Assembly (NCBI RefSeq): GCF_024502345.1
Contig: NZ_JALDNN010000001.1
Origin: Escherichia coli
GTDB lineage: Bacteria; Pseudomonadota; Gammaproteobacteria; Enterobacterales; Enterobacteriaceae
DNA length: 64,000 bases
Strand: one strand, 5' to 3'
A model generated the notes under the pieces. The model saw only the letters and a program-made list of their open reading frames with translations. It did no database searches and was not told where the DNA came from. How positions within the stretch are numbered: the stretch's first letter is position 1; the number at the start of each line of letters is the position of its first letter. The translations under genes and the position numbers were made by a program. Shown here in pieces: positions 645 through 64,000 of this stretch.

Positions 645-847
645 TTTGTATCCTGTTGTATGATTCTTAAGTACTGTTATTGGCCCGATTTTATCGCAAT
701 TTCATATGGATGACAGGCTTTGTATGTCATGCGTTGCACTGAGAGTTCGTTTGCCCGGTTGTGTAGCCAACACTCTTTCAGTCAGGCCAGTAGAAACGTT
801 GCGCTGACGATAAATACTGAAGCCCCAATACCATCGGGGCTGAACGT

Positions 848-2725: not shown

Positions 2726-2786
2726 ATGTTATATTAGCTGGCCTATTTTAATTTATTGCGTGTCGGTAGTACAGTCTTTGCACAAA

Positions 2787-3116: not shown

Positions 3117-3156
3117 GTTAATGTGATTTAATCATCACTAATAATATGTTGTGATT

Positions 3157-3870: not shown

Positions 3871-3972
3871 ACATCATTTCCGAATTTAGCCGGGAAATGA
3901 TGCCAGCAGTAGCGGACAGGATTTGTCCGCCCTCTGAAGTTTTTTAAAGTCTGAATACCTTAAATGTAAGTG

Positions 3973-4288
3973 CTAAACGTCAGTATTCTCAGGTGAATAA
4001 AGATGCTTCTGGCGCATGTAGGCAATAAAAATGCAGGATGGTAGCGTCACCCGGTATGCGGGACCGGCTAAATCAATCAGCAGCCAGAGAGAACTGAGCA
4101 CCCAGCCCACGGGACCGGCAAAAGCGCCCATGGTACGCGTCAGCATGGCATTTCCTGCAACGGTCAGCCCTCTGCCTAACAGGGCTTTCGCCACACCATT
4201 TGTGACAACAAGTGCCATCTGATAGGCCGCAAACCCGGATGTTTTAATCCCCGCCTGGATTGCCATGGTCAGCAGCTCCGGCGTGGGA
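3973..4288 (-). pseudogene. 3' fragment of the 249-aa module protein (paralog of 61339..62088), truncated at a recombination junction
   Basis: Nucleotide homology to 61339..61660 ends abruptly near 4288; only the C-terminal ~100 codons remain. Confidence 0.6.
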
Positions 4289-4289
4289 T

Positions 4290-4562
4290 TGCTGTATCGC
4301 AGACGATACCGAGCAGGAGATACCAGCCATCATCAAGTGCGGTGACGTATTCCGGGTTAGCCAGTGCCACTGCCAGCAGCGGGTCTTCGGGGAGTGTGTC
4401 ATCGTGGTTGAGATGCCAGAGCAGGGTTCCCGTTTCGTTCCAGAAGGCGGTAAACAGGTCGATATCATCGACAGGGCCAAGGATTTCATTGCTGAGGGCC
4501 ACCAGTGCGGAGGCGGGCAGGTTGAGAAGGGGAAGACTGGTGGGAGTCGTGAGTTTAAACAT
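4290..4562 (-). pseudogene. 5' fragment of an unidentified gene fused to the junction at ~4288
   Basis: Start ATG at 4562 (MFKLTTPTSLPLLNLPASALVALSNEILGPVDD...); reading frame runs into the junction and ends in non-homologous sequence. Confidence 0.3.
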
Positions 4563-5081
4563 GATTATCTCCATAAGTAATTGATTCATATTGATAATAT
4601 GTTTTCAAATGACTTTTAGTTACATTTTTTTTACGTTGTTTGCTTATTTTGGATTATGTCCTTAAATTTAGTAGTGGGCTGGCGTTAAATCCCGTTTTTT
4701 TTCCGATTTGCAGCATTTTGTAAGCAAATTAGCATGAGCTGTTTTAACTGAAAATGAGAGAAGGCTTGCGCACAATTGCTATTGATTTTCTTACTTATTT
4801 TCTCAATCACAAAACGCCTTAAATAGTTCAAAAAACAATCAACACCCCATAATCGATATTATTTATGGGGAGAAACGACGTTTAAGCCTGAAAGTGGGGG
4901 AGTGGCACTTTCAGGAGATTAAGGAGGCAAACAGGCCTCTTTAACGCGTGTTTTTCTCACCAAAATGTCAGAGTCGGTGATTTGCACTTCAGTATTTCTG
5001 CCAATACTATTCGCTCCATGTGCTGGCCAGCATCTAACTCAATACCCTTAATCTGTATTAATTGAGCGAGATGTATGCATT

Positions 5082-6404
5082 ATGAAACCCGATAGTTCTT
5101 TAAACCAAATAACGCAGACAATGAAACGGAATGATGTTGATTCTGTGGATAGTCGCTTTTTTGAGTCAGCGCAAAACATGAAAACCAGCGTTGACGTTGA
5201 AGATTGCTGCGTTGAAGTGATGGTTCGACATCACAGCCCAAAGAATCAAAGAGAGGCATTCACTAAAGCTTTTTTTGATGAGTGTAAAATCCGTGCAGTA
5301 CAAACTGGCCGGACTATCGAAGCCAGCGATACAAAATGTACCGGGCTTAAGGCTATATTCCACTCATCCGGACGCATTAAGTTTATTGTCCGCAAAAGTA
5401 TTCGCGGAAAGAATGTTTACGTTGCAGTAGGAAGTTACCCTGAATTTTCCATTAATAACGCAAGGGAACATGCCTTTAAAATAATTCAGGAGCTTAAGGC
5501 TTCCGTTGAGACTTATGGTGAGCGTTTTCTTACGCACAGCAAAATAACGTTTAATGAACTTGTGGAACAGTATGTGAAATGCGTACTTAACACGGGCGTT
5601 AAGCGTTCAGCTAACACCGACCTTTCTAAGATCCGTAAATACCTGCGCCCTCTTCTCGGTGACAAAAAGCTGGCAGGTATGACGGAGGCAGATGTTCTGA
5701 GCTATCTACACGATCTCGATCTTAAGCCTGCCACACGCAACCGCCACCTGGCGCTCATTAAAGCGGTCTTTACCTGGGCTATACGCATGGGATACACCAG
5801 CCGCTCTCCGGCGCTTTATATCAAAGCGCTGCCTGAAGTGACGTCAGATCGCCGCGCCATGGATGACTCCCAGCTTCAGCGCTGGATGGAAGTCTGTGAG
5901 TGCTGGCGTAATGGTAAACCCGATCATGAAGCCCTTGCTCTGCTCATGTTCCTTGCCCTGACGGGGCTGCGTCTGGGGGAAACCCGTCACCTTCGTCTTG
6001 AAGATGTGGACTGGAGCCGCAAGGTTATCACCCTTCGCCATACCAAAAACGGCAAACTCCGCCGTGTACCGGTATGTGATAAGGCTTTCGTTCTTCTGAC
6101 AGAACAGCGTCAGCATCTGGGTGATGAAGGCTGGGTATTTCCGGGCAAGGGGACCGACAATCCGGTTTCTGAGCCGCGTCGCCTGCAAAAACGGCTTTGT
6201 GAGGCTGCGGGTATTCCACCGTTCACCATCCATGAGATGCGCCATACCTTTGCGACAAAACTCATTGAGAGCGGGGCCGACATTCACACCGTCAAAGACT
6301 TACTGGGCCACAGCACTATCAAAGTGACGGAGCTTTACTTGCACGCTTCCCCGGCGCGTTACCACGAAGCTGTTAACCGGGCGATGAATGTTTTTCCGGC
6401 CTAA
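5082..6404 (+). CDS. tyrosine-type site-specific recombinase (phage/island integrase)
   Basis: 440 aa; catalytic-domain motifs GLRLGETRHLRLEDVD, HEMRHTFAT and LLGHSTIKVTELYLH (R-H-R-Y signature). Confidence 0.8.
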   Translation: MKPDSSLNQITQTMKRNDVDSVDSRFFESAQNMKTSVDVEDCCVEVMVRHHSPKNQREAFTKAFFDECKIRAVQTGRTIEASDTKCTGLKAIFHSSGRIKFIVRKSIRGKNVYVAVGSYPEFSINNAREHAFKIIQELKASVETYGERFLTHSKITFNELVEQYVKCVLNTGVKRSANTDLSKIRKYLRPLLGDKKLAGMTEADVLSYLHDLDLKPATRNRHLALIKAVFTWAIRMGYTSRSPALYIKALPEVTSDRRAMDDSQLQRWMEVCECWRNGKPDHEALALLMFLALTGLRLGETRHLRLEDVDWSRKVITLRHTKNGKLRRVPVCDKAFVLLTEQRQHLGDEGWVFPGKGTDNPVSEPRRLQKRLCEAAGIPPFTIHEMRHTFATKLIESGADIHTVKDLLGHSTIKVTELYLHASPARYHEAVNRAMNVFPA

Positions 6405-6476
6405 ACAGAATTCCCCCTCAGGCAAGTGAGTTCTGCGCTTTACTGCCTGTGGTTCACATTCAAAAGGAACCTGTAA

Positions 6477-7172
6477 ATGAATAATAAATCAACACCATCC
6501 CCCTTGACTACAACGACCCCCGCTCGTTTTGCCTGCAGGAAATTAAATGCATTTCTGGCTCGTCGTGCTCTTCATATGAAGGTGGTAAGAAAAAACCTGA
6601 ACAAGGCTGCTGCAATCGACATCGATCTCGATGACATTTCTAAGTGCGGATGCCGTGATGGTCTGCCTGAAGGCTTTGTCAATACTGCAAAAGGGCTTTT
6701 CTATTATGAAGGAAAAAAATGGTACCAGTTAAGCTCGACCCCCATTCTCCCTGTCTACAGGCATTATTCTGATTGTAAAACGCGCAATATGGGCGTCGAG
6801 TTGATGACTATCAACCATGCTGGAGAGTTCGCCTGTGCTGATGTCTCATTAAGTGATGCAATGGTAAAACCTGATCACGTCATGGCTTCTCTGGCGGGCA
6901 AAGGTTTTGGTATCTCCCTGACGATAAAGTCTAAAGAGCTTCTGGTGCAATTCTTACAGGTGTGTATGAAGAAATCGCTGGAATTGCCTACTTATCTTGT
7001 CGCAGATTCGATGGGTTTTGTGCCTGGCAACAAAGCATTTCTTCACGGCAGTATACCTATCGCGCAGCACCTTTTGGAATTTGACTATTTGATTCCGGCT
7101 TCCCGTGTTCCACGAGGGCTTGTCGAGTCGGGAACGCTGGATGACTGGAAAACGATGGTACCTGTGAAATGA
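6477..7172 (+). CDS. hypothetical protein, possibly 3'-truncated island gene
   Basis: 231-aa ORF directly downstream of the integrase; its 3' end overlaps an opposite-strand ORF, suggesting a deletion junction. Confidence 0.35.
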   Translation: MNNKSTPSPLTTTTPARFACRKLNAFLARRALHMKVVRKNLNKAAAIDIDLDDISKCGCRDGLPEGFVNTAKGLFYYEGKKWYQLSSTPILPVYRHYSDCKTRNMGVELMTINHAGEFACADVSLSDAMVKPDHVMASLAGKGFGISLTIKSKELLVQFLQVCMKKSLELPTYLVADSMGFVPGNKAFLHGSIPIAQHLLEFDYLIPASRVPRGLVESGTLDDWKTMVPVK

Positions 7173-27281: not shown

Positions 27282-27557
27282 GTGGCTTCTGTTTCTATCA
27301 GCTGTCCCTCCTGTTCAGCTACTGACGGGGTGGTGCGTAACGGCAAAAGCACCGCCGGACATCAGCGCTATCTCTGCTCTCACTGCCGTAAAACATGGCA
27401 ACTGCAGTTCACTTACACCGCTTCTCAACCCGGTACGCACCAGAAAATCATTGATATGGCCATGAATGGCGTTGGATGCCGGGCAACCGCCCGCATTATG
27501 GGCGTTGGCCTCAACACGATTTTCCGCCATTTAAAAAACTCAGGCCGCAGTCGGTAA
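27282..27557 (+). CDS. insA: IS1 InsA
   Basis: 91 aa, [39 protein letters not shown]... Confidence 0.9.
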
Positions 27558-27979
27558 CCTCGCGCATACAGCCGGGCAGTGACGTCATCGTCTGCGCGGA
27601 AATGGACGAACAGTGGGGATACGTCGGGGCTAAATCGCGCCAGCGCTGGCTGTTTTACGCGTATGACAGGCTCCGGAAGACGGTTGTTGCGCACGTATTC
27701 GGTGAACGCACTATGGCGACGCTGGGGCGTCTTATGAGCCTGCTGTCACCCTTTGACGTGGTGATATGGATGACGGATGGCTGGCCGCTGTATGAATCCC
27801 GCCTGAAGGGAAAGCTGCACGTAATCAGCAAGCGATATACGCAGCGAATTGAGCGGCATAACCTGAATCTGAGGCAGCACCTGGCACGGCTGGGACGGAA
27901 GTCGCTGTCGTTCTCAAAATCGGTGGAGCTGCATGACAAAGTCATCGGGCATTATCTGAACATAAAACACTATCAATAA
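27476..27979 (+). CDS. insB: IS1 InsB (expressed as InsAB' fusion by -1 frameshift)
   Basis: 167-aa ORF overlapping the insA 3' end in the -1 frame. Confidence 0.85.
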
Positions 27980-28253
27980 GTTGGAGTCATTACCGACCGG
28001 GTTAAACCGGAAATGCGACACCTCGGAAGTGTCTCCTGAAAACCTTTCATCAGTACGCTCATCATGCTGTTCATAGAGTAGTCCAAATACAGTACCGTAC
28101 AGTACGGTACGTTTTATATCTTGACTTCTGAGCGCCGTCAAATGAAAATGTACTCGTCAGTACGATTACGAACCCTACTATCTGACGTGATTCCGAAATC
28201 TGAGAACAAAAAGTGTTGGCCCCGGCCAGACACCTAAACTAACGAGGAAACAT

Positions 28254-47649: not shown

Positions 47650-49517
<1,868 letters not shown>

Positions 49518-49616
49518 TATTACTGTCGCCTGTAAATAACCGGCACAGTGCGAACACCATGCCGGGAGATTATGGCTGACAAAACGGGAACGACAGGATC
49601 CCGCTGTTGTCGGGGG

Positions 49617-50013
49617 TCAGAAGGTTTCCCAGTTCTCGCTGGCGTGTTGTTCCGTTTCACGAACGGACTTTACCGCTTTAACCTTACTCTGCGGGCTGGT
49701 GTTGCTGATTGTCGGTACTATGGTATTTTTTCGTTCAGCATCGCGTTTTTTATTATCACGGAGACGAAATACGCTCACCTTCTCCTGCAGAATCCGTGAC
49801 TGATTCTGCAACGAAGCGGCAGTGGCTGCAGACTGTTCCACCAGAGCTGCATTTTGTTGGGTGGTGCTGTCTATCTGGCCCACGGCGCTGTTAATCTGGG
49901 CAATACCATCTCCCTGCTCACGACTGGCCTTGGCTATTTCGTCAATCAGCCCTTCCATGCTCTGGACGTTACTGATGATATCCTCCATTCCCCTGTCTGC
50001 TTTTTCAACCAGG
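49617..50013 (-). pseudogene. methyl-accepting chemotaxis protein, 3' fragment truncated by IS1
   Basis: Encodes the MCP signalling-domain C-terminus ending in the CheR-docking pentapeptide NWETF; upstream part replaced by IS1. Confidence 0.7.
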
Positions 50014-50689
50014 GTACTGACGGGGTGGTGCGTAACGGCAAAAGCACTGCCGGACATCAGCGCTATCTCTGCTCTCACTGCCGTAAAACATGGCAACTGC
50101 AGTTCACTTACACCGCTTCTCAACCCGGTACGCACCAGAAAATCATTGATATGGCCATGAATGGCGTTGGATGCCGGGCAACCGCCCGCATTATGGGCGT
50201 TGGCCTCAACACGATTTTCCGCCATTTAAAAAACTCAGGCCGCAGTCGGTAACCTCGCGCATACAGCCGGGCAGTGACGTCATCGTCTGCGCGGAAATGG
50301 ACGAACAGTGGGGATACGTCGGGGCTAAATCGCGCCAGCGCTGGCTGTTTTACGCGTATGACAGGCTCCGGAAGACGGTTGTTGCGCACGTCTTCGGTGA
50401 ACGCACTCTGGCCACACTGGAGCGTCTTCTGAGCCTGCTGTCGGCCTTTGAGGTCGTGGTATGGATGACGGATGGCTGGCCGCTGTATGAATCACGCCTG
50501 AAGGGAAAGCTGCACGTTATCAGCAAGCGTTACACTCAGCGCATTGAGCGACATAATCTGAATCTGAGACAATATCTGGCAAGGCTGGGACGGAAGTCAC
50601 TGTCGTTCTCAAAATCGGTGGAGCTGCATGACAAGGTCATCGGGCATTATCTGAACATAAAACACTATCAGTAAGTTGGAGTCATTACC
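50014..50689 (+). mobile_element. IS1, 5'-truncated copy (lacks left inverted repeat and start of insA)
   Basis: Match to IS1 begins inside insA (TACTGACGGGGTGGTGCGTAACGG) and continues to the right end ...GAGTCATTACC at 50689. Confidence 0.85.
50171..50674 (+). CDS. insB: IS1 InsB
   Basis: 167 aa, a few substitutions relative to the 27476..27979 copy. Confidence 0.85.
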
Positions 50690-50781: not shown

Positions 50782-52044
50782 CTATTTTAATGGATTGTTA
50801 ATCTTTGCATATTCAAACGGACTGATACCCTTCTCCCGGTTCGCATCCAGAAAATCGGCCCACCATTGCAACATCAGTCGCCGTTCTTCCAGATGTTCTG
50901 CTTTATGGATATACGCAGCACGTACACCATTACGCTCCTGATGGCTCATCTGACGTTCCACAGCATCGCGGGACCACAAACCTGATTCAATCAATGCACT
51001 GCACGCCATCGCCCGGAATCCATGGCCACAGACTTCCTGGGTTGTGTCATACCCCATCACCCTCAGGGCTTTATTTACAGTATTTTCACTGATTGGTTTA
51101 CGCGGGTCATGTGCACCCGTAAATATCAGACCATTTTCACCTGCCCATGTCTGAAGTTCTGTCAGTATGGCTACAGCCTGTTTGCTGAGTGGCACAAGAT
51201 GTGGTGTTCGCATCTTGGAGCCCCGGTGTGAGAATTTTACGCCGGGCAGAGGTTCGCGTTCGGCTGGAATAGTCCACATGGCATTGTCAATATCAATTTC
51301 AGACCACCGGGCGTATCTGAGTTCACTGGAACGAATAAAAACCAGTAAATTCAGCGTAACGGCAAGCTGGGTGACAGGTTGCCCCTTGTAACTGCTAATA
51401 CGCGACAAAAGTTCAGGCAGGCGAGAAAGATCAAGAGCGGGGCGATGCTGGCGTTTTACAGTGGTCAATGCGCCAGCCATATCCAGAGCAGGATTATATC
51501 TGATGATGCCAGACTGTACGGCATAACGCATTACAGCAGATATTCTTTGCTGCAGACGACTGGCGATTTCATAAATTTGTTTAGCTTCTGCGGCACGAAC
51601 AGGGATAAGCAGGTCCGGGGTACGGAGTGTTGTGATATCCCGGTTGCCGATAAAGGGGAAAACGTGTGTCTCGAGGCTTTTGAGTACTTTATCGCTGTGT
51701 GATTGTGCCCATTGTTTATTACTGGCATGCCAGCGTCGTGCAATATGTTCAAAAGAGAGTTGTAAATCAGGGACTACTTTTTTAGCTCTTTTTTGTTCGC
51801 AAGGGTCAACCCCCTCCGAAATCAGTTTTCGGGCCTCATCCCGTTTTGTACGAGCTTCGGAGAGAGAAACTTCCGGATACACACCAAGTGCCAGGGTTTT
51901 CTCCTTACCCAGAATACGATAACGGAGACGCCAGTAACGGGAACCATTAGGATGAACCAGCAGGAACATGCCGGCCCCGTCAGTGAGTTTATAAGCCTTG
52001 TCAGTGGGCTTTGCAGCCCGGATTTTTGCGTCAGTCAGTGCCAT
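50782..52044 (-). CDS. P4-type tyrosine integrase (tRNA-associated genomic island integrase)
   Basis: 420 aa, MALTDAKIRAAKPTDKAYKLTDGAGMFLLV... N-terminal arm-binding domain and catalytic R..HGFR..Y core; adjacent to a tRNA-Phe 3' fragment. Confidence 0.85.
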   Translation of the reverse strand: MALTDAKIRAAKPTDKAYKLTDGAGMFLLVHPNGSRYWRLRYRILGKEKTLALGVYPEVSLSEARTKRDEARKLISEGVDPCEQKRAKKVVPDLQLSFEHIARRWHASNKQWAQSHSDKVLKSLETHVFPFIGNRDITTLRTPDLLIPVRAAEAKQIYEIASRLQQRISAVMRYAVQSGIIRYNPALDMAGALTTVKRQHRPALDLSRLPELLSRISSYKGQPVTQLAVTLNLLVFIRSSELRYARWSEIDIDNAMWTIPAEREPLPGVKFSHRGSKMRTPHLVPLSKQAVAILTELQTWAGENGLIFTGAHDPRKPISENTVNKALRVMGYDTTQEVCGHGFRAMACSALIESGLWSRDAVERQMSHQERNGVRAAYIHKAEHLEERRLMLQWWADFLDANREKGISPFEYAKINNPLK

Positions 52045-52241
52045 AGTTCAGCCTTCTGAATGCGTTAAAGAGGGTACAAATTCTGTCGAACTGGGGTATA
52101 CCCGCAATTATACCCACACAATGGGGTTGATGTGGGGGGAATCTGGTTGAGTTCGGTAGAATTGATTTGGAGGCAGAACGCTTAAATTGTGGCGTTCTGA
52201 AACGAAAAACGGACCTCCGTGGAGGTCCGTTGATATGAATT

Positions 52242-52290
52242 TGGTGCCCGGACTCGGAATCGAACCAAGGACACGGGGATTTTCAATCCC
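52242..52290 (-). repeat. 3'-terminal 49 nt of tRNA-Phe (island attachment-site repeat), not a complete tRNA gene
   Basis: Minus strand reads GGGATTGAAAATCCCCGTGTCCTTGGTTCGATTCCGAGTCCGGGCACCA, matching the anticodon-loop-to-CCA part of recalled E. coli tRNA-Phe; match stops abruptly at 52290. Confidence 0.75.
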
Positions 52291-52567
52291 TTTAAAAGAG
52301 CCCAAACGATCCATCAGCACTAACAGTTTTTTACTGGTTTACCTTGAGAAAAATGTTTAAGTTTGGTTCTTCATGACTTAAGTATTGCTTAAATACGGCG
52401 TTTCGAAGCTACCAGAATCCTACCATTATGAGCCTATGCCCATAGAAGAGAAATTATCTCCCGTTCTCGCGATTCAATGACTAAAAATCAGACGGTGCAG
52501 GCTTTTAGATACTGATATTATATCTTTTGGGTAAAGTATTAATCTCTGTTGAGATAGGCTCTTAGCC

Positions 52568-52906
52568 CTAAAATAGCCGAGCAGCAAACGCCAAAACAAC
52601 AATACTGACATTACCATTAACTGTCGCGATAGTTCTGAGTCGGTCGTCTTTCAGGGTTTTACCGTCAAATGTTGCGATGGTGCGGAGTCGATCGTCTTTC
52701 AGGGTCTTTCCATCAAAGGTAGCGATGGTGCGGAGTCGGTCGTCTTTCAGGGTTTTACCGTCAAAAGTTGCGATGGTTCTGAGCCGGTCGTCTTTCAGGG
52801 TTTTACCGTCAAACGTTGCGATGGTCCTGAGTCGATCATCTTTCAAGGTCTTGCCATCAAAGGTCGCGATAGTCCTGAGTCGATCGTCTTTTATAGTTAC
52901 GCTCAT
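52568..52906 (-). CDS. tandem-repeat protein: five identical 16-aa units (KDDRLRTIATFDGKTL) plus a degenerate sixth
   Basis: 48-bp DNA units differ from each other only at synonymous positions; AGGAGA SD before the second ATG; about 215 bp downstream of hsdR on the same strand. Confidence 0.6.
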   Translation of the reverse strand: MSVTIKDDRLRTIATFDGKTLKDDRLRTIATFDGKTLKDDRLRTIATFDGKTLKDDRLRTIATFDGKTLKDDRLRTIATFDGKTLKDDRLRTIATVNGNVSIVVLAFAARLF

Positions 52907-53127
52907 AAGCATTCTCCTGTGATACGTCCGTTCAGCACTTTACCATCCAAAATAAAGCACTGGTTTCTGTAAGTTCTGGGCGCTAATCATTTGAATATGC
53001 GTTTAAAATCCATCCAGTTAGCATTAACATTAACCAGCGCTTCATCGATCATAACAGGTCTGATGCAGGTTAAAAGATACAATCTTACCTATAAATTGCG
53101 GTAGCGCATTGCTCTGTTATCTGGCAT

Positions 53128-56100
53128 CTAGAGGTGCCCTCCAACCCCTTTAAATTTTTCGATAAACGCCCCAATTTTCTGGAATACGGTCTGCTTTTTC
53201 GTTTTGTACTGAGGATTCAGCGGACTGAGCTTTGGTAGCGTCTCATTTAGCTCAGTGCCATTTTCGGTAGCATACTCCCGTTTGAGTGATGTGCGGATAT
53301 AGCGCCTTGCAGCCTCTTCATTGAGGTTTTCTTCCTTAATCAACGCCTCTGCTTCCCGTTGCTGTTCACGCTGAGCATAGGTAAAGAATGCATCAATGAT
53401 ACTGGCCTTGTCCGGCATGTCATCAAGGTTAGTTTGCTGAATAAAGTCAACAATCAGACCTTCTTTGGCACGGTTGCCCAGACTTGAGCGGATTAAGCGT
53501 CTGACCTCTTCAGTCAGGGCTTCTTTACCTTTTTTCTCTCTGTTGTGGTCGAAAATCAGGCCAAGGATGTAATCCAGGTTAATTTCCTGCGACTTCAGCA
53601 GGTCAATTTCAAACACCACGTCATCCCAGTCTGTGGTTGATTTATCCCTGTCGTTTGATGCTTTTTCGCGTCGCTGCCAGTCCCGGATATCATTGTATGC
53701 TGAGCGATAGTCCTGAACTTTACGTTCTGCCGGGAGACGAATGGTTTGTAATTCAGCAAATTTTTCATCATCCACATAGTGCTCTGCTTTAAAGGTTTCT
53801 ACCGCTTCCGGGTCACTAATATCAACCTTCTGCAGGGCTTTCAGCGTGGCAAATTCATCATAGTTTTGCAGGATGTTTTCTGCCCGCAGATATTCACCAA
53901 ACAGTTTGACGAAGGCTTTTTTCTCTTTTTCACTGTCGATACTGGCAGGGTCAGGGAAGCGCTGCTCCAGCTCCGAAACAACAGCCATAAAACCTCGTTT
54001 AGCCTCACCGGTTGCCGCATCGGTAAAGCCCTGCATGTACTCTTCGTAGCTTTTTTCCAGCACCACATTCTTGGTGTTTTTGTCGCCAAAAAGTGTGATG
54101 GCATCAATGGTCGGACGCTCCAGGTCCCTGAAAGTCACGATATTGCCGAAGGTTTTGGTTGCATCATAGATACGGTTGGTGCGTGAGAATGCCTGCATCA
54201 GACCGTGATAACGCAGGTTTTTGTCAACGAACAGAGTATTGAGCGTCGGGGCATCAAAGCCGGTTAAGAACATTCCCACCACGATGAGAAGGTCGATATC
54301 CTGATTTTTCACTCGTTGAGCTAAATCGCGGTAGTAGTTCTGGAAGCCGTTACTGTCGGTACTGAAATTGGTTTTAAAGTGGTTGTTATAGTCATCAATG
54401 GCTGAATCCAGGAATTCCTTTGCGCTGCTGTTCATTGCGCTGGTATCAAAGCTTTCGTCAGTAATATCACCAATGGCGCTTTGCTCTTCATTAGCAGCAA
54501 AAGAGAAGATGGTTGCCACACGAAGACGTTTATAGCTGCCAGATTTCTTCTCAGCTTCTTCCTGTAGCATTTTAAATGTCGTGTAATAAGCTTTTGCCGC
54601 GTCCACGCTGCTCACTGCTAACATGGCATTGAAGCCTTTTGCTCCCGGGAAGGTACGATGCGTTTTCTGGCGGAAGTTATTGAGAATGTATTGCGTTATT
54701 TCCTGGATACGCAGTGGGTGCAGAAAGGCCTGCTGGTTTTCAGCCGCGCTGAGTTTTTTCTCGTCTGTTTCCGTTTCAAGGGACTTAAACTGTGGGCGGA
54801 CATCGTTATAGTCCACCTTAAACTTCAGCACTTTTTCATCACGAATCGCATCAGTAATTACGTAAGAATGTAATTCACGCCCGAAGACGCTGGCGGTGGT
54901 TTCTGCCCCCAGTGCATTTTCCGGGAAAATAGGCGTACCGGTAAAACCAAACTGATAAAAGCGTCTGAATTTCTTTTTGAGGTTTTTCTGGGCCTCACCA
55001 AACTGGCTGCGGTGACACTCATCAAAGATAAACACCACCTGCTGCTGATAGACGGGCAGGTCAGCTTCGGCTTTCATCAGGTTATTGAGTTTCTGAATGG
55101 TTGTGACGATAATTTTGTTATCGTCCTTATCCAGGTTTCTTCTGAGGCCAGCTGTATTATCCGAACCATTCACACTGTCCGGAGAGAAGCGCTGATACTC
55201 CTTCATGGTCTGGTAATCGAGGTCTTTCCTGTCGACCACGAAGAAGACTTTATCAATAAAGTCCAGCTCGGTTGCCAGTCGTGCGGCCTTAAAACTGGTC
55301 AGGGTTTTTCCTGACCCTGTGGTATGCCAGATAAACCCGCCGCTTTCGGGTTTTGACCAGTTCTTCGCTTTAAAAGAGCTGTTGATTTTCCAGAGAATGC
55401 GCTCAGTGGCCGCTATCTGATAGGGACGCATGACCAGCAGTGTCTGGCTGCTGTCAAACACGCTGTAATTAAACAGAACATTCAGCAGGGTATGCTTCTG
55501 GAAGAAAGTGGCGGTAAAGTCCTTCAGGTCCTTTATCAGGGTGTTATCCGATTTCGCCCAGTTCATGGTGAAATCAAAGCTGTTTTTATCCCGCTTAGTG
55601 GTACTGGCAAAGTACCGGGTATCAGTCCCGTTGGAAATCACGAAGAGTTGCAGGTATTTAAACAGGGAGTTATCGCTGTTAAAGCTTTCCTTGCTGTAAC
55701 GGTGTATCTGGTTAAAGGCTTCACGAATCGCCACGCCGCGCTTTTTGAGTTCGATTTGCACCAGTGGCAGGCCGTTGACCAGAATGGTGACGTCATAACG
55801 GTTAGCGTGTGAGCCGGTCTGCTCAAACTGCTGAATGACCTGCACCTTATTGCGCAGCAGGTTCTTTTTATCTATCAGATAGATGTTTTCCAGACGACCA
55901 TCATCAAACGTAAAATCACAGATATAGTCGATATGGATTTTACGGGTTTTGTCCAGGCTGCTGTCACTGGGGCTGTCCAGATACTGCTCTGCGAAGCGCC
56001 GCCATTCACTTTCGTTAAACTCCACACCATTAAGACGCTGAAGCTGGTCCCGCACATTCGCCAGCATCGCAGTCGGTGACTTAACGGAGATAAACTCATA

Positions 56101-56244
56101 CCCCTGATTAAGAAGGTCCTGAATCAGCTCCCGCTCAAGGTCCAATTCGCTCTGGTAGCTGTCACCGGTATCCATAACTTTTGTGTATTTATCAAGGACG
56201 ATAAAGTTATTGGATTCAGCAATGGTGTGTGTCTGTTGTGTCAT
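53128..56244 (-). CDS. hsdR: Type I restriction enzyme R subunit (Type IC, EcoR124-like)
   Basis: 1038 aa; Walker A GSGKT, DEAH-box [10 protein letters not shown]-terminus [20 protein letters not shown] resembles recalled EcoR124I HsdR. Confidence 0.9.
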
Positions 56245-56307
56245 GGAGCATCCTGTGCGTCATCTGGCAAAGTCCGGAAGGGTATCAGAAGCATCTTCCG
56301 GCATTCA

Positions 56308-56352
56308 TAAAACCTGATACCGGACGGGTGAGAACAAACCCTGCCGGTATCA
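56308..56352 (-). terminator. stem-loop in the hsdS-hsdR intergenic region (possible hsdMS terminator or regulatory structure)
   Basis: 8-bp inverted repeat GATACCGG...CCGGTATC followed by a T-rich run on the minus strand. Confidence 0.35.
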
Positions 56353-56360
56353 ATGGTCCG

Positions 56361-57569
56361 TCAGTTGCTAGTTGTTTCGTGCTTCGGGAAGCTGAACAAC
56401 AAGTCGCGATAGTACTCGTACTGCTTCTGGCGTAGTTCTATTTCACGGGGTAAGCCTTCGGTGATAGAGCTTGTTAATGTGTCGAATTTATCGAGTATGG
56501 TGACAATCCTAACTTGCTCTGACTTTGAAGGGATTGGTAGTAAAAGGTCCTCCATTTGTTTTTTGGATACGGCAGGAATACCTCCTTTCTGCTGAATACC
56601 CGTTAATTTGGTCTCGGATTGTTTCAGATAGTAATAGACATACATCCAATGCAACTGTTCAGTGCTTCTAACAGAGATGGAATAGCAACTATTGCCTGCC
56701 CAGTAAGGAGTGGAACTCTTATTTACAAATCCTGCATTTGCTCCACGCGCACTCACAATAATCTTATCGCCATCATTGTTGAAGTCTTCGTAGTAACCTG
56801 TAGGAGTCCGCCCTCCGTTGTAGACCGGATAATCTGCGTCAGGATTCTGCTTGTCCTTACGGACAAACGCACCAATTGTAATTATTGCTACTTCCCCCAG
56901 ACTCTTCCACTCAACACTCCCCCCCTCAAAACTCAGCAATTGGTTACGATAGTAATTGTACTGCTTTTTACGCATGGTAAGCTCAGCTGTAAGCTCAGCT
57001 GTAAGAGCAGTAAATTTATCCAGAATTCGGACGATTTCAGACTGGATGGTCAGAGACTTTTCAGGATTTTCCGGGCAAGGAATGGGGGCTTTATATGCTG
57101 AAATCATTTGAAGATTCAGCCCACCACGCCCGCTGTTCCCAGATGATATCTGACGTAGATTATCATACTGGGTTTCCAAAAAGTGGAAAATATAATCTGA
57201 ATTGATCTTCCGCTCATCAAATGTAATGGCTGCAAGTGATTGATTGGTGGTTAATTTAATGCGGGTTCTTGCTACTTTACCACGAGTTTTACCCTGACCT
57301 GCTAATGCCATAACAATGGAATTTTCAGGAACAAATTTAGCACTTGAGTTATTTAATCCATCCTCAGTAATGAATGTCTCAGTTTCTTTGATGGTTTTTA
57401 AATTTACTTCACCTGAACTCATCCAGGGGATAGTTCCATGCTCCCAATATTCTGTTTTTTTAGTATCAGGGGTGCCACCAGAATAAATTTTTTTTGCAAC
57501 CTTACCGAGAGGGAACCACTCAACCTCAATCCCCTCCAGCAGTTTTTCCAGATAATTTAGCTTACTCAT
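56361..57569 (-). CDS. hsdS: Type I R-M specificity subunit (Type IC), two TAEL repeats in the central conserved region
   Basis: 402 aa; conserved central ...[27 protein letters not shown]... and C-terminal ...[37 protein letters not shown]; 4-bp overlap with hsdM. Confidence 0.85.
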
Positions 57570-59122
57570 GCCTGCGCCTCGTAGCCTTCAATTTCTGCCA
57601 CAATCGCATCAATGTCTTTGCGTAACTGGTCGATTTTGCTGACCGTGGTTTTAAGCTCAACATTCAGTTCGGTGATATCGACGATTTCACGGGTATCTTT
57701 TGCTTCGACGTAGCTACTGACAGACAGATTGTAGTCATTACCAGCAACAGTCTCTAATGGCACCGTTTTCGCCAGATGGTCAGTATCTGCCTTACTGTTG
57801 AACACATCCATAATCTGCTTAATATGACCATCAGTCAGGATATTGTTATTGGTTTCTTTCTTAAACAACCCGCTGGCGTCAATAAACTGAACGCGGGTAT
57901 CTGTTTTGTGCTTGGACAACACTAGTATGTTAACGGCAATGGTGGTGCCGAAGAACAGATTTGGTGCCAGAGAAATCACCGTTTCAACATAGTTGTTGTC
58001 GACCAGGTACTGGCGGATTTTCTGCTCTGCTCCGCCACGGTAGAAAATACCGGGGAAGCAAACTATTGCTGCACGCCCTTTAGCTGACAGGTAGTTTAGT
58101 GCATGTAGCACAAACGCAAAGTCAGCTTTTGATTTCGGGGCCAGTACGCCAGCAGGAGCAAAGCGCTCATCGTTAATCAGGGTCGGATCATCACTACCAA
58201 TCCACTTAACCGAGTACGGTGGGTTAGAAACAATCGCATCGAACGGTTTTTCATCGCCAAAGTGAGGCTCAGTCAGGGTATTCCCCAACCTGATATCAAA
58301 CTTATCGTAGTTGATGTTGTGCAGGAACATATTCATACGCGCCAGGTTAAACGTCGTATGATTTATCTCTTGTCCGAAAAAACCTTCTTCAATGATATGA
58401 TTATCAAAGTGCTTCTTCGCCTGAAGCAGCAGTGAGCCAGAGCCTGCGGCAGGGTCATAGATTTTGTTGACGTGAGTCTGACCATGCATCGCAAGCTGAG
58501 CAATCAGCTTAGAGACGTGCTGTGGTGTGAAGAACTCCCCGCCAGACTTACCGGCATTCGCCGCATAGTTTGAAATCAGGAACTCGTAGGCATCACCGAA
58601 AAGGTCAATCTGGTGCTCATTAAAATCCCCGAGCTTTAGCCCCTCAACGCCTTTCAGAACGGCAGCGAGGCGGCTGTTTTTGTCTTTGACGGTGTTACCC
58701 AGTCGATTGCTGGTCGTATCGAAATCGGCAAACAGACCTTTGATGTCGGCCTCAGACGGATAGCCGTAGGCAGAGCTTTCAATAGCGACGAAGATACTGT
58801 TTAAATCAGCATTCAGCCTGTCGTTGGTGTTCGCTTTAGCGGCAACGTTGCAGAACAGCTGGCTCGGATAGATGAAATAGCCTTTAGTCCTGATGGCATC
58901 ATCTTTGATGTCATCGGTAATGATGCTGTCATCAAGTGCTGCATAATGTATGCTCTCATCCCCTGCTTCCATGTAGCTGGAAAAATTCTCACTGATGAAG
59001 CGGTAGAAAAGGGCACCGAGTACATACTGTTTAAAATCCCATCCATCTACTGAGCCCCTGACATCATTGGCAATGGCCCAGATTTGACGGTGTAGTTCTG
59101 CACGTTGTTGAAGACTGGTCAT
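57566..59122 (-). CDS. hsdM: Type I R-M N6-adenine DNA methyltransferase subunit
   Basis: 518 aa; catalytic NPPY motif (SNPPYS) and AdoMet-binding region [10 protein letters not shown]. Confidence 0.9.
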
Positions 59123-59710
59123 TTTTATCCTGTTATCGATTCTTGGTTTCGGCTATTGCTGCGATTTTATCGCAATTTTACTTCTTTGACAGGTTTGAGT
59201 GATGCCTGATAGCCTCCCCAATGAAGGTTAAAATGGTTAATGAAATGTACAGAGAATCAATCGGATATGCTGTTTCGATTTCTGGAGCATCATTAGCGGT
59301 GTTTAGGGGCAGTTCATTACATTTCTGACCTTGTATAGATATGCCGTGATGAAATAAACGTTCACAGCCATCATCTGATCGGTGTGCAACAAAGGCGTCA
59401 TTCATTAAATACGCAGAGAGCCTGACTTATTGCGTCAACGGGTGAGTTACAATGTTGAATCTGGTAACGCCAAAACTGTGTAATTATCTACGCTAAATCA
59501 TTTCTGGTTAGCGTGACCGACGCCGGCGGTCTTAAGATGTACAATTCTTACTGTCTCCGAATGAATTTTATTTATTCAAACAGACTTGGGTGATATTATT
59601 ATCAAGTGAAAATGCCTGTTACCTACCTTGATGATATATACAGTGTTTTTACAGATGAATTTATATGTTTGTAATCAATGCGTGAGTTTGATGTTTTTAA
59701 GGTTAGTTAA

Positions 59711-60031
59711 ATGAAACAGCTATTGGATTTTATAATTGGAAGTTGTGTGGATAACAGAACCAAATTTCAGTTGCTTGCAGTTTGTTATCCAAAATGTAAG
59801 GATGATGAAGTGATGTTGATTTTGCGCTGGAGGGTAGCTGATTTGTATGCGCATGAACTGGAAGTTCAGAATTATCTTTTTAGAGAGCTGGAAGGTATCA
59901 TAGAGAAAATCACGGGCCTGCCTGAAACCTATTTTGTATCAAGCTATAAATCACTATTGACCGATGATTTTAGAGAACTCACAGCAGCGGGGGTTGATGT
60001 TTGTAAGTTTATTATGGAAAACAAAGGTTAG
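59711..60031 (+). CDS. hypothetical small protein (106 aa) in the variable slot between hsdM and the WYL module
   Basis: AT-rich ORF with AAGG SD 8 nt upstream; divergent from hsdM; occupies the position held by the GmrSD-like gene in the left-hand locus. Confidence 0.4.
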   Translation: MKQLLDFIIGSCVDNRTKFQLLAVCYPKCKDDEVMLILRWRVADLYAHELEVQNYLFRELEGIIEKITGLPETYFVSSYKSLLTDDFRELTAAGVDVCKFIMENKG

Positions 60032-60146
60032 TTGGATAAGAACCAACACATTTTCAGGTTCTGTTCTGGCTGAGGAACCTGAATATTCAATCAATGTGTT
60101 AGTTCTATTTTTGATGGTTAGATTTAAATGTGATTCTTTTGCGGTG

Positions 60147-60482
60147 TTATACTGCTGTTATGCATCTAAAAAGCTGACGGCTTTGTTTATGTTTTATGTT
60201 CGGATAGATTCTCATCGCAGCTGCACAGAGAGGTGAAACCTGCCTTGCTATATTTTTACCAAAGTTAACAAGAAGACCATGCTTGATCTTTTCACTATTC
60301 GTTCTGACTTTGATGACAAAGCTGAACTGATATACGATTACCTCAATGAGGTCATTGCCAAATGTTATACTGGCAGCGTTGTTTATTTCATGTTCATAAT
60401 TCCTCAGGTCAGTGTTAAGTCTTGCTGTTGCATCTACAAGTGCGTATTCTTTATCGATAATCATAACTTTCTCACTTATCAT
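60147..60482 (-). CDS. hypothetical protein (111 aa), paralog of 2787..3116
   Basis: Last gene of the module operon; conservative substitutions versus its paralog. Confidence 0.45.
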   Translation of the reverse strand: MISEKVMIIDKEYALVDATARLNTDLRNYEHEINNAASITFGNDLIEVIVYQFSFVIKVRTNSEKIKHGLLVNFGKNIARQVSPLCAAAMRIYPNIKHKQSRQLFRCITAV

Positions 60483-60522
60483 GTTAATGTGATTTAATCA
60501 TCACTAATAATATGTTGTGATT

Positions 60523-61236
60523 TTAATTGCGATTATTCGGTTGTTTTGCCCCGTAATGCATTATCTGATGAATAATGTTCATGTGGGGTAAGGCTTCCAT
60601 AAAGTCAGACTGTTCAATCAGCGAAATGAGTGTGTTATCGATCTCAAACGTTGTATCCGGTAATACCTCAACCAGCCTGATTCGGGACAGGGAAATAACG
60701 AACACGCCCGATGACGTACATCCGGCAAGAAACCACTCCGCATGGCTGCAAAGCAGACGGTAGGGATGAACGGTATGGCTGACGTTTTCGTCGGTTCTGA
60801 TACGCACCTGGGTCTGGTTAAGTATGGCGAGCGTCAGTCTGCTGAAATCACCGAAAAGGGTGGGTTTCTGGCGCGGCTCCGGTAGCATAATCCTGTATGG
60901 CGAGGGACGTTCCCCGTCAAGCATCAGGCTCAGTAGTTTGGCATCCATCGCGGGTAACAGACGGTCAAGATGCAGCAACCTCGCCAGTATCTTCATATCC
61001 CGTTCCGTGCGGCGACGAAAGTAATGTGAGGCAAGCTGATACACGCCGTTGCTCTGTTCAATATCAAGGTAGGTCAGACGGACGTTGAAATCCCGTCGCA
61101 GCGTTCGCGTCGTCACTCCAAATTCTTCTGCCAGCGTCCCGATATGCAGCTTTTCACCCTGAAACAAACGGCTCAGGATGATGGAAAGGCGGGTTGCCAG
61201 TCTGTCATGTTCGTTTTCTTGTGTTATCAGCGTCAT
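60523..61236 (-). CDS. HTH-WYL domain transcriptional regulator (paralog of 3157..3870)
   Basis: 237 aa; same motifs as the left-hand copy. Confidence 0.6.
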   Translation of the reverse strand: MTLITQENEHDRLATRLSIILSRLFQGEKLHIGTLAEEFGVTTRTLRRDFNVRLTYLDIEQSNGVYQLASHYFRRRTERDMKILARLLHLDRLLPAMDAKLLSLMLDGERPSPYRIMLPEPRQKPTLFGDFSRLTLAILNQTQVRIRTDENVSHTVHPYRLLCSHAEWFLAGCTSSGVFVISLSRIRLVEVLPDTTFEIDNTLISLIEQSDFMEALPHMNIIHQIMHYGAKQPNNRN

Positions 61237-61338
61237 ACATCATTTCCGAATTTAGCCGGGAAATGATGCCAGCAGTAGCGGACAGGATTTGTCCGCCCTC
61301 TGAAGTTTTTTAAAGTCTGAATACCTTAAATGTAAGTG

Positions 61339-62088
61339 CTAAACGTCAGTATTCTCAGGTGAATAAAGATGCTTCTGGCGCATGTAGGCAATAAAAATGC
61401 AGGATGGTAGCGTCACCCGGTATGCGGGACCGGCTAAATCAATCAGCAGCCAGAGAGAACTGAGCACCCAGCCCACGGGACCGGCAAAAGCGCCCATGGT
61501 ACGCGTCAGCATGGCATTTCCTGCAACGGTCAGCCCTCTGCCTAACAGGGCTTTCGCCACACCATTTGTGACAACAAGTGCCATCTGATAGGCCGCAAAC
61601 CCGGATGTTTTAATCCCCGCCTGGATTGCCATGGTCAGCAGCTCCGGCGTGGGATTGCTGTAGCCTGTCTGCAATTCTTCCGCCACGGTCTTTAGCTGAG
61701 CGGGTGTCATCTTCTCAAGGCTTTTCTCCAGGATCTTCATCAGCAGATTCATTTCAATGGTTTCAACACTGGATTTGCTGTTGTAGTTCACCTTCATTTT
61801 ATCGCAGGCATCGGTAAGAATTTCCCGGTACAGCACCCCTTTACCCCAGCGGAGCAGCGTGGCAAAGCTGTTCGCCCCAAACGTCTGAACTTCGGCGGCA
61901 ATGGCATCCCAGTAGCGCGGGTGGTTGGGCTTGTGTTTTTTATACTGAGGATCATAGGTCAGCGTTTCCGTGATGCGTGCCAGTCCGTCTTTCGGATCGC
62001 AGATAAGCACAGAAACCAGTAAATCCAGATCGTCACGATGACAGTGGCGCAGAAACTCAAGGTCGGGGTCGTGTCGGTAGGTAGCCAT
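61339..62088 (-). CDS. hypothetical protein (249 aa) with Gly/Ala-rich hydrophobic C-terminal segment
   Basis: GAGGTGA SD; C-terminus ...GVAKALLGRGLTVAGNAMLTRTMGAFAGPVGWVLSSLWLLIDLAGPAY looks membrane-associated; first gene of the module. Confidence 0.55.
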   Translation of the reverse strand: MATYRHDPDLEFLRHCHRDDLDLLVSVLICDPKDGLARITETLTYDPQYKKHKPNHPRYWDAIAAEVQTFGANSFATLLRWGKGVLYREILTDACDKMKVNYNSKSSVETIEMNLLMKILEKSLEKMTPAQLKTVAEELQTGYSNPTPELLTMAIQAGIKTSGFAAYQMALVVTNGVAKALLGRGLTVAGNAMLTRTMGAFAGPVGWVLSSLWLLIDLAGPAYRVTLPSCIFIAYMRQKHLYSPENTDV

Positions 62089-62231
62089 ATTTCACCTCAT
62101 TGCAGATATTGGACCTGACAGTTTAAGGAAGCACCCGGACAGGGTTTGTCCGCCTGAAAAACAAAAAAGTAAAAAAAAACCTACCCGAAAGCAGGTTTCT
62201 GTTCACCGGATGGAGGTATAACGCGTCGGGA

Positions 62232-62618
62232 TTACTTTCCGCGCCATTCCTTTTCCACTTTATCCGCAAAGGCATCGCACTGCCGGGCATATTCCGGGTT
62301 ATACAGAAGCTCCGACTGCGAAAGCTGCATGGCGGTCATGCTGCCGTTACGGGCGTTCGATTCGAGCCAGGTTCTGCCATAGGTTTGGTTCATCACCTGA
62401 AGTACCCTGTTGAATACCGGTCCGTTGAAGCGGGCATTGAGATTAACGCCTTTTACCTGAAGGCCGCTGTCACTGGTCTGGGTCAGGCGGGTGGAGTACA
62501 TCGCGCAGAAGGTCGAATTGGTAATCATCTGAGCGTCAGCCTGCTCGTCGGCGAACGCGCTGTGGCTGAAGGCGGAAAGCAGAATTGCGGCGGTTAACAG
62601 TTTTAAAGTTTTCATCAT
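62232..62618 (-). CDS. secreted small protein (128 aa) with cleavable signal peptide
   Basis: MMKTLKLLTAAILLSAFSHSAFA then ADEQ...: typical Sec signal peptide with AxA cleavage site. Confidence 0.55.
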   Translation of the reverse strand: MMKTLKLLTAAILLSAFSHSAFADEQADAQMITNSTFCAMYSTRLTQTSDSGLQVKGVNLNARFNGPVFNRVLQVMNQTYGRTWLESNARNGSMTAMQLSQSELLYNPEYARQCDAFADKVEKEWRGK

Positions 62619-62692
62619 GTTCCCTTATGGATTGAAAAGCGGAGACAGCCTGCCATACGGGGTGGTCAGGAGATGTCCGGCAGAGAAAAAAG

Positions 62693-62932
62693 TCAGGGTT
62701 TCAGCGAGGGAGCCAGTCGCCAGCGGTGAGGGCCAGCGGATTCCAGCACAAAGGCCAGTTGAGCGAGGTCCCGTCTTGCTGTGCGGGGAGAGACGTCAAA
62801 CTGCCGGATGATGTAGCGAACAGATATTGTCTGACCGTAAAACAGGGCCATGGTCAGCCGGATAAGCCGTTCTCCCTGTCCGGTGACACGTTGCCTGCAA
62901 CGGCTGGCTTTCATCGTTGCCATACGCGCCAT
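62693..62932 (-). CDS. short HTH protein (79 aa) resembling the N-terminal domain of the YfjR-like regulators
   Basis: GERLIRLTMALFYGQTISVRYIIRQFDVSPRTARRDLAQL parallels the HTH of 7578..8228; no WYL-like segment follows. Confidence 0.35.
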   Translation of the reverse strand: MARMATMKASRCRQRVTGQGERLIRLTMALFYGQTISVRYIIRQFDVSPRTARRDLAQLAFVLESAGPHRWRLAPSLKP

Positions 62933-63375
62933 CGGTCCCCTTTCTGAAAAGAATCGAGGTGTCTGGCAAGCCAGATATCAGGGCACGAATCGCCGGTAAC
63001 GCAGCGGGCAGTAAACCGGTGGCAGTTAAAGTCGAGCAGGCTATAAGGATAGCGCTGACCCACTGCCGCCTTTGCCCGTTCAGCGGCCTGTGCACAACCC
63101 TGAGGCGTCAAATCCATACAGTCGGTATACACCGAGATAGCGGAGTTCCAGCCATCGAGCCGGTCAAGAAACCCTTTGGCCTTACTTTTGATAACGGTTC
63201 CATCGCCATCAAGATGAACAATATCGCCGTTACCCACATAGATACCGCTGTGTGCGGCAAGGCCAAAAAGCAGTTCGCACTGCACGATACCACCGTAAGC
63301 CGGTTCATCGACGCAGGAGAGAATGCAGTTATCGATAAATGAATCCACGAAGTTCAGCAGCAGAAGCCGGTACAT
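62911..63375 (-). CDS. LRAT-like (permuted NlpC/P60 papain-fold) protein
   Basis: Start placed at MYRLLLLNF (AAGGAA SD); His motif AHSGIYVGNGDIVHL precedes Cys motif FNCHRF, the LRAT-type order. Confidence 0.5.
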   Translation of the reverse strand: MYRLLLLNFVDSFIDNCILSCVDEPAYGGIVQCELLFGLAAHSGIYVGNGDIVHLDGDGTVIKSKAKGFLDRLDGWNSAISVYTDCMDLTPQGCAQAAERAKAAVGQRYPYSLLDFNCHRFTARCVTGDSCPDIWLARHLDSFQKGDRWRVWQR

Positions 63376-63433
63376 AACATTCAGTTCCTTACTACGGGGG
63401 AGAGGGGGGATGCGGGGGAAACGTTGTGAACAC

Positions 63434-63862
63434 TCAGCTTTGCCACAACGTACGGACCGTGAAAACCCCCATATCGTGGTAAGCCATAAAGTTACTTTCC
63501 CACAGCGACCAGAACTCACGGGCGTCGACATGAGAGATATCGCCACAACGGGAAAGCCACGTGTATTGTTGCGTCCAGCTCACATCGACATCTTTTTCAA
63601 GCTCAGGCCATGGATGCCCTGCATAGTGAAAATCGGTGACGTAATCGAGCTGCCAGTCTTCTCCGGCAGGGATGAGGCGTATTTCGACCGGATGCCAGCC
63701 GCCCTTTTCCGGTGAGTATTCAGGGTCACGAAAGTTAATGGTTAATCCGGTGATGGGGTGACGATGAGGCGGTTTTTGCGCGAGGATATCCAGAAGCAGT
63801 TGGGTGAACGACCGGGAGAGCGGCAGCACATAGCCGCCCTGCAATATTACGGGTGATGACAT
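63434..63862 (-). CDS. hypothetical protein (142 aa) immediately upstream of the LRAT-like gene
   Basis: ORF MSSPVILQGGYVLPLSRSFTQLLLDILAQKPPHRHPITGL...; Trp-rich; no motif recognised. Confidence 0.45.
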   Translation of the reverse strand: MSSPVILQGGYVLPLSRSFTQLLLDILAQKPPHRHPITGLTINFRDPEYSPEKGGWHPVEIRLIPAGEDWQLDYVTDFHYAGHPWPELEKDVDVSWTQQYTWLSRCGDISHVDAREFWSLWESNFMAYHDMGVFTVRTLWQS

Positions 63863-64000
63863 AGTGAATTTCCTGATTTTTGGTTAACAGAACACAGAAA
63901 AAGCGGGGTTAGTCCTGGCTGAGCGTAGCAAGCTGCGTCATACGATGCTGCCAGTCGGCATAGCAGCGGTGCATAAAGAGTCTGCTGCTGTCCGCTTCGA

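Follow-up and report, generated by a model that had tools for sequence, protein, structure and literature searches.

Elements that integrate into a tRNA gene (tDNA) split it on entry and regenerate it from their attP, and the displaced tDNA fragment marks the island end (PMC4383910). The Islander work that described this arrangement recognizes two crossover classes, anticodon-centred and T-stem/acceptor, and in 2,168 genomes it counted 125 tandems of two or more islands and 4 of three or more (PMC4383910). At tRNA-Phe, the integrative and conjugative elements ICEPm3 and ICEPm1 form a tandem at pheU, and ICEPm1-type elements have 52-bp tRNA-Phe repeats (PMC11278526). Islands with the intP4 integrase at pheV are reported to have repeats of 23 and 19 bp (PMC11537424). 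A Type I restriction-modification (R-M) system has been reported on a genomic island (GI) at pheU, GI-pheU, in ST101 (bioRxiv 10.1101/2020.06.07.138552), and integrase-only defence islands have been reported at E. coli tRNA hotspots (PMC10121019). Here we analysed a 64,000-nt stretch of an Escherichia coli contig (NZ_JALDNN010000001.1; hereafter the window), in which a P4-type integrase gene lies beside a 49-nt 3' fragment of tRNA-Phe, with a Type I R-M (hsd) locus on the other side of the fragment.

Our analyses indicate that the 49 nt are very probably the displaced 3' part of pheU, left by site-specific integration of an island of about 20 to 25 kb (island A1, which carries the hsd locus) into the anticodon-loop region. 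The fragment is the attR of A1, and its last 23 nt are the core of the attL of the island that owns the P4-type integrase (island B). At the far end of B, positions 1 to 7160 (minus strand) hold a third, degraded island in the orientation of A1, which the original prediction for this locus had not noticed (island A2). The order in the window is A1, fragment, B and A2, which is probably a triple stack. Displaced fragments, tandem arrays and stacking at tRNA-Phe are already documented; the structure is ordinary, the triple stack is a new instance, and current understanding is unchanged by these findings.

The tRNA-Phe fragment and the islands on either side

The fragment (52242 to 52290, minus strand; GGGATTGAAAATCCCCGTGTCCTTGGTTCGATTCCGAGTCCGGGCACCA when 52290-52242 is read on that strand) is an exact copy of positions 28 to 76 of E. 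coli tRNA-Phe(GAA), as assigned by alignment to intact E. coli tRNA-Phe genes of other strains. It spans the second base of the anticodon stem, the anticodon loop, the variable loop, the T arm and the acceptor 3' strand up to CCA; the block identical to the regenerated tRNA end comes to 50 nt if the A at 52241 is included. An end piece of a tDNA that reaches CCA and starts in the anticodon stem corresponds to the anticodon-centred site of Islander. No match to the tRNA 5' half was found in the bases preceding the fragment (CTCTTTTAAA; over a longer stretch, GGGCTCTTTTAAA). ARAGORN returned zero tRNAs for the whole window, and the sole Rfam match in the window at the gathering threshold was isrC. 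With up to three mismatches allowed, the 49-mer occurs once in the window (shuffled sequences give an expectation of 0), as does its 3'-terminal 23-mer. The original prediction, that only the part from the anticodon loop to CCA is present and that no complete tRNA-Phe overlaps the site, therefore stands after re-inspection with ARAGORN and Rfam, and the coordinates it gave are exact to the base. The native pheU terminator sits directly 3' of the fragment: positions 52198 to 52241 (minus strand) are of the type found downstream of pheU, contain the hairpin of an intrinsic terminator (52231-52208) and a T run, and form the start of the integrase-proximal arm of island B.

The integrase gene of island B (50782 to 52044, minus strand) encodes an apparently intact protein of 420 aa, identical to WP_001218854.1. 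Pfam identified Arm-DNA-bind_3 (PF13356, 2e-29), Phage_int_M (PF22022, 3.7e-27) and Phage_integrase (PF00589, 2.7e-16). Along its full length the protein shares 55% identity with phage P4 Int (225/410; E 1e-174), and the two have the SSELR, HGFR and AAYIH motifs in common. Its score against NCBIfam PRK09692, 246 bits, is under the 434-bit cutoff and thus places it outside that exact subfamily. The DUF4102 architecture and the identity to P4 Int bear out the earlier assignment as a P4-type enzyme. As had also been claimed, the gene abuts the tRNA-Phe fragment and not an intact tRNA. The gap of 197 nt between the fragment and the integrase start equals the gap between intact pheU and the integrase in other strains.

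Those strains define island B. An intact pheU with the integrase adjoining its 3' end, in the order dsbD-dicD-pheU-int, is present in C 236-04A, in ECONIH4 and in the CX and 0H strains. Their match to the window is 100% at the nucleotide level and breaks off precisely at base 52290, where the fragment has its upstream limit. Between 7161 and 50781 (minus strand), the body of island B matches the pheU island of C 236-04A and relatives at 99.7-100% identity, with some IS (insertion sequence)-related differences from C 236-04A close to the integrase. In C 236-04A the island is about 58 kb long and terminates in a 22-nt repeat, TTCGATTCCGAGTCCGG-CACCA, followed by the yjdQ integrase remnant and cadC; the bases upstream of this repeat (GATAAAAGAAATT) do not match the tRNA. 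The block that island B has in common with the tRNA is thus 22-23 nt, from the T loop onward, and relatives with the identical integrase show both an integrase 3' of the tRNA (pheU-197 nt-int) and a far-end repeat of about 20 nt (22 nt). K-12, which lacks these islands, has dicD-pheU-yjdQ remnant-cadC. In the window, island B is broken off inside a DUF5983 gene, and no copy of its distal 22-nt repeat is present because of a deletion at about 7160.

On the hsd side, the distal part of island A1 (52291 to 64000, minus strand) runs past the right end of the window. It belongs to a group of defence islands that we call type A, which were recognized in other genomes. G3/10 has the window arrangement, with a 301-nt junction that is 99.7% identical; its intact pheU lies beside dicD, 23 kb from the fragment, and the gap is filled by one type A island of about 23 kb. 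The order in this island is variable cargo, a 394-aa integrase, a DUF4102 fragment, DUF927, a second tyrosine recombinase, small genes, DUF2787, LRAT, DUF3944, a WYL/YafY regulator, DUF262, hsdM, hsdS, hsdR and a 5-fold beta-flower gene, and then come the 49-nt fragment and the P4-type integrase. AW1.7 has a type A island on its own at pheU, with yjdQ-cadC behind the fragment, ET846 has one on its own at pheV, and ET220 has one at pheV in tandem with a different P4-type integrase allele. All type A examples have the right junction TTT(T/G)AAA/GGGATTG with a 49-type fragment, and the junction CTCTTTTAAA/GGGATTG is found base for base in G3/10, AW1.7, ET846, YZ22MPE6 and ET220. At the other end, the intact tRNA is always followed by ATATTCATA(A/G)GGCCTCGCTG with its own terminator. 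The Islander arrangement of intact tDNA, integrase and co-oriented 3' fragment is seen in G3/10, AW1.7, ET846 and ET220.

Ten further loci carry the exact DUF2787 protein of the window; they have the type A gene order and lie at pheU or pheV. Among their contigs, all eight that are long enough have an intact tRNA-Phe 7.4-7.9 kb beyond DUF2787. The 301-nt junction is present in 45 of 5,426 complete E. coli genomes, about a dozen of which also have the full P4-type integrase. Fragment, integrase and exact junctions are thus observed in the window, and the same junctions occur with intact tRNA in other genomes. That the fragment is an att repeat, as first proposed, follows from the end of identity to the pheU-int strains at 52290 and from the recurrence of the opposite junction in the five genomes named above. 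The accompanying suggestions fared equally well: the intact tRNA was found elsewhere in relatives (G3/10 and the eight DUF2787 contigs), the copy of this genome lying outside the window, and the hsd locus belongs to a separate island at the same tRNA, as its solitary occurrence in AW1.7 and ET846 demonstrates.

Origin of the 49-nt length and competing explanations

Since type A islands are always bounded by an intact tRNA and a 49-nt fragment, and the repeat of island B is 22-23 nt, the length of 49 nt would be the signature of the island A integrase and not of the P4-type enzyme that abuts the fragment. The two enzymes are distant, the island A integrase being 24% identical to the island B integrase and 27% to P4 Int. 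We infer that the island A integrase recombines at the anticodon loop and the P4-type enzyme in the T-loop/acceptor region, the latter using a shorter core that would consist of the last 22-23 nt of the tRNA from the T loop. The attP of A1 would carry a copy of tRNA positions 28-76, and integration would therefore regenerate an intact pheU at the A1 integrase end. The old 3' part of the tRNA, with everything behind it including island B, would be pushed to the far end of A1. The intact pheU and the integrase end of A1 would be expected about 7-10.5 kb beyond window position 64000, beside dicD/yjdC. If its integrase is intact, A1 could still excise; this would create an attP circle junction of GGGCTCTTTTAAA + 49/50 nt + ATATTCATAAGG and restore pheU-intB.

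Several points weigh against this reading. The intact pheU and the A1 integrase are outside the window and so unseen here. The exact HsdS of the window is found only on three contigs of at most 9 kb, and among complete E. coli genomes the match to A1 never exceeds about 97%. A1 lacks DUF262, which all ten loci with the exact DUF2787 protein carry, and has a different hsdS from the reference type A islands, so the part beyond the window may likewise be different or decayed. In YZ22MPE6 and G3/10, pieces of such islands were shifted by IS1, and a rearrangement just outside the window is possible. The crossover positions are drawn from the extents of the identity blocks alone.

The order of insertion is the point on which an alternative fares best. 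A1 may have come first, with island B then entering the displaced 49-nt fragment of A1, which retains the full 23-nt P4-type core. We regard this order as a serious contender with somewhat less than an even chance. The end sequence would be identical whichever island came first, A-only strains exist (AW1.7), and there is a published case of an element entering a resident attR at tRNA-Phe, that of ICEPm1 and ICEPm3 in P. mirabilis AR379, where ICEPm3 was the resident (PMC11278526). However, strains that have B alone, with an integrase segment matching the window at 100%, are common too, and the sequence holds nothing that discriminates between the two orders.

A second alternative accepts the array as real but has it split from its tRNA by a rearrangement, or located at pheV and not pheU, so that no intact pheU adjoins A1. 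IS1 did relocate parts of such arrays in G3/10 and YZ22MPE6, type A islands use pheV too, and the right end of A1 is not visible. We nevertheless consider this quite unlikely, given that an island B 99.7-100% identical to that of the window is at pheU in every strain where B is intact and that the tRNA was kept in eight of eight long contigs with the same DUF2787 protein.

The position of the integrase next to the fragment might also suggest that the 49 nt serve the P4-type integrase as its own att repeat, with island B carrying a 49-nt copy of the tRNA. This was rejected as highly improbable on account of the 22-nt distal repeat in C 236-04A, whose upstream bases GATAAAAGAAATT are unlike the tRNA, and of the 19-23 bp repeats of published intP4 islands (PMC11537424); moreover, the 49-type fragment ends type A islands even without an adjacent P4-type integrase (AW1.7 and ET846). 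Least credible of all is a tRNA gene cut by an unrelated deletion, IS insertion or assembly error: IS1 and IS30 copies do lie within 3 kb of the fragment and IS1-mediated rearrangements occur in relatives, but no IS end abuts the fragment, and the recurrent junction, with its left breakpoint at tRNA position 28 in five further genomes and two tRNA-Phe loci and its presence in 45 complete genomes, rules this candidate out.

The third island and the deletion at its border

Displacement of the pheU 3' part by A1 accounts for one seam of the stack; the other, between B and A2, has been altered. Positions 1-7164 align to type A islands such as that of ET846 in two blocks, at 97.5% (1-4296) and 98.8% (4295-7164) identity. 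Direct repeats with A1 flank island B, namely 1-702 versus 58479-59178 (93.7%) and 2803-4296 versus 60169-61662 (97.3%). A2 comprises the N-terminal part of hsdM (1 to about 646), a DUF262 gene that scores as HEC-05 in PADLOC (848-2725), a small ORF (open reading frame), a WYL regulator (3157-3870), a truncated DUF3944 gene (3973-4266), an internal deletion of 2.76 kb at 4295/4296, a XerC/D-like tyrosine recombinase (5082-6404, plus strand) and the first 228 codons of DUF927, an N-terminal part (6477-7160, plus strand). The HEC-05-scoring DUF262 gene is present in A2 and not in the A1 part, 52291-64000. The tRNA-proximal part of A2 is lost, including its integrase.

Truncated B (DUF5983) and truncated A2 (DUF927) meet at 7159-7164, with a few bases of microhomology and no IS. 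This joint at about 7160 is in none of the 5,426 complete E. coli genomes. The deletion appears to have been illegitimate and would have removed the distal repeat of B and the integrase end of A2. A2 would then be a second, older type A island beyond B, and we infer an original array of pheU-A1-49 nt-B-(short repeat)-A2-(49 nt)-flank, from which a later deletion took the end of B, the seam and the integrase end of A2. Stacking followed by deletion can in this way immobilise islands: B and A2 are probably locked in place, because B is without its own distal repeat and A2 without an integrase. Homologous recombination between the 0.7-1.5-kb repeats of A1 and A2 could also delete island B, in a deletion of about 57 kb. 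The strain has one complete Type I R-M system and at least the start of a second, an example of how two related systems of this type can end up as neighbours on one chromosome.

Rearranged relatives were found as well. G3/10 (L001 1-20000; 0.84-0.89 Mb) has pheU-A-fragment-integrase-IS1 followed by a BREX-1 system, and its island B body, 99.8-100% identical to the window, is 3.6 Mb away, which suggests an IS1-mediated rearrangement. YZ22MPE6 was set aside as a further tandem example, since it is IS1-rearranged, with fragment and integrase relocated beside a tRNA-Ser island, and is uninformative on the tRNA.

One G is missing (CCGG-CACCA) from displaced fragments that border the chromosomal flank, at pheU as well as at pheV (L005 13952-14000, L010 3292-3340 and L009 48729-48750), and fragments that precede a P4-type island, including 52242-52290 of the window, keep GGG. 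The variant without the G is listed as a common GI-pheV attR (PMC11537424), and the loss matches the 'damage' noted by Islander (PMC4383910).

Comparison with described elements and island contents

The window resembles the tandem arrays of Islander (PMC4383910) and cases of tandem accretion (ICESt1; SXT/R391; ICEPm3 with ICEPm1, PMC11278526) in having several elements on one tRNA gene with displaced 3' fragments between them. It differs in that its members use two sublocations of one tRNA, which is why the fragment lengths differ (49 versus 22-23 nt), in that two of the three members are of the same family, and in that one seam has been erased by deletion. Island B has its integrase and proximal fragment, its distal one being deleted; A1 has its fragment, with the integrase out of view; A2 has lost its integrase end, and its own fragment would be expected to the left of position 1. 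In ET220, the type A island and the P4-type island after it form a tandem array in the Islander sense, leaving out the far end of the P4-type island.

Island B is like the GI-pheV and GI-pheU islands with intP4 (PMC11537424) in three features: the integrase immediately 3' of tRNA-Phe, the distal repeat of 22-23 nt in the common variant TTCGATTCCGAGTCCGG-CACCA, and mosaic, IS-rich cargo with a CP4-like module at the far end. Unlike them, the window integrase adjoins a fragment and not an intact tRNA, because another island was inserted between, and the distal repeat has been lost. The satellite phage P4, with its att site in leuX, has an integrase of the same domain architecture, and its annotated core of 20 bp is comparable to the 22-23-nt repeat of island B at the tRNA 3' end. 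The target tRNA is not the same, however, and the scanned ORFs of the visible island B gave no match to P4 replication or capsid-redirecting gene families.

Island A shares with ICEPm1/SPI-7-type elements (PMC11278526) a long repeat that starts in the anticodon stem and the use of both pheV and pheU. It is smaller, at about 20-25 kb, its repeat is 49-50 nt versus 52 nt, and the annotations of G3/10, AW1.7, ET846 and the DUF2787-related type A loci showed neither relaxase nor type IV secretion genes. By gene content, with integrases and no recognisable transfer genes, it resembles the integrase-only defence islands of E. coli tRNA hotspots (PMC10121019), and its Type I R-M system recalls the GI-pheU of ST101 (bioRxiv 10.1101/2020.06.07.138552). 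Its defence-type genes are the Type I R-M system, the WYL regulator and the JukA-like and HEC-05-like genes; together with the 394-aa integrase, DUF927 and a second XerC/D-like recombinase they make up the type A gene set. A literature search by domain names found nothing specific on, and no paper naming, the type A island. It is conceivable, if rather doubtful, that type A islands are a not-yet-described family of mobile defence islands of about 20-25 kb with a variable attL-int cargo slot, targeting the anticodon-loop region of both tRNA-Phe genes and stacking repeatedly around P4-type islands. If so, they could also repair a pheU or pheV gene harmed by the loss of 1 nt that is left in displaced fragments by P4-type islands, because type A regenerates the tRNA 3' half.

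The findings are of use mainly to annotators: with the fragment, the limits of three islands in the window can be set to the base, and the hsd locus is assigned as cargo of a mobile defence island distinct from the one to which the adjacent integrase belongs. From its length, a displaced tRNA fragment can be traced to the integrase that made it: 49-50 nt for the anticodon type (the hsd island) and 22-23 nt for the P4-type.

In A1, all on the minus strand, hsdR (53128-56244; 1038 aa; TIGR00348, 733 bits, above cutoff), hsdS (56361-57569; 402 aa; PADLOC Specificity_I, 9e-123) and hsdM (57566-59122; 518 aa; TIGR00497, 640 bits, above cutoff) are intact genes in one cluster, which qualifies as a Type I R-M system. 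Between hsdM and the WYL/YafY regulator (60523-61236), positions 59179-60168 hold about 1 kb of unrelated sequence with short ORFs only, in place of the 2.1-kb DUF262 region of other islands; this variant without DUF262 recurs on a 9-kb Logan contig (L006). The regulator and the DUF3944/JukA-like gene (61339-62088; PADLOC JukA, 1.5e-72), together 60523-62088, adjoin the Type I R-M system, next to a 128-aa ORF without a match (62232-62618), and the DUF2787 gene lies at 63434-63862. The last gene of island A, encoding a 5-fold beta-flower protein (52568-52912), contains about six 48-nt tandem repeats, each encoding approximately DDRLRTIATFDGKTLK; neither NCBIfam nor PADLOC gave a match for it.

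The tRNA-proximal arm of type A islands, which lies outside the window, has three or four copies of a conserved CTACGGT repeat, at distances of 47 and 170-192 nt behind the end of the tRNA (read at L003 29449-29650 and the equivalents in L005, L014 and L016). They are candidate arm-type binding sites of the integrase; the heptamer occurs once in both strands of the entire window. The interval from attL to the integrase is a variable cargo slot (L003 30042-33230, L005 33542-36381, L014-L021 about 2771-3358). In its minimal form the slot has a single 195-aa ORF; G3/10 has a restriction endonuclease, ADH and a LysR regulator there, and AW1.7 an anti-phage dCTP deaminase.

The contents of island B include IS1, IS30, isrC, an autotransporter, tau, mmu, dld, ykgEFG, app genes and a CP4-like module. 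Behind the integrase, 47658-50689 holds an IS1 at about 50015-50689, the small RNA isrC (49025-49147, minus strand; 140 bits) and an IS30 transposase gene (47658-48809); in C 236-04A their place is taken by a capsid gene, IS110 and a group II intron. The IS1 is 96% identical to a second copy at 27320-27994.

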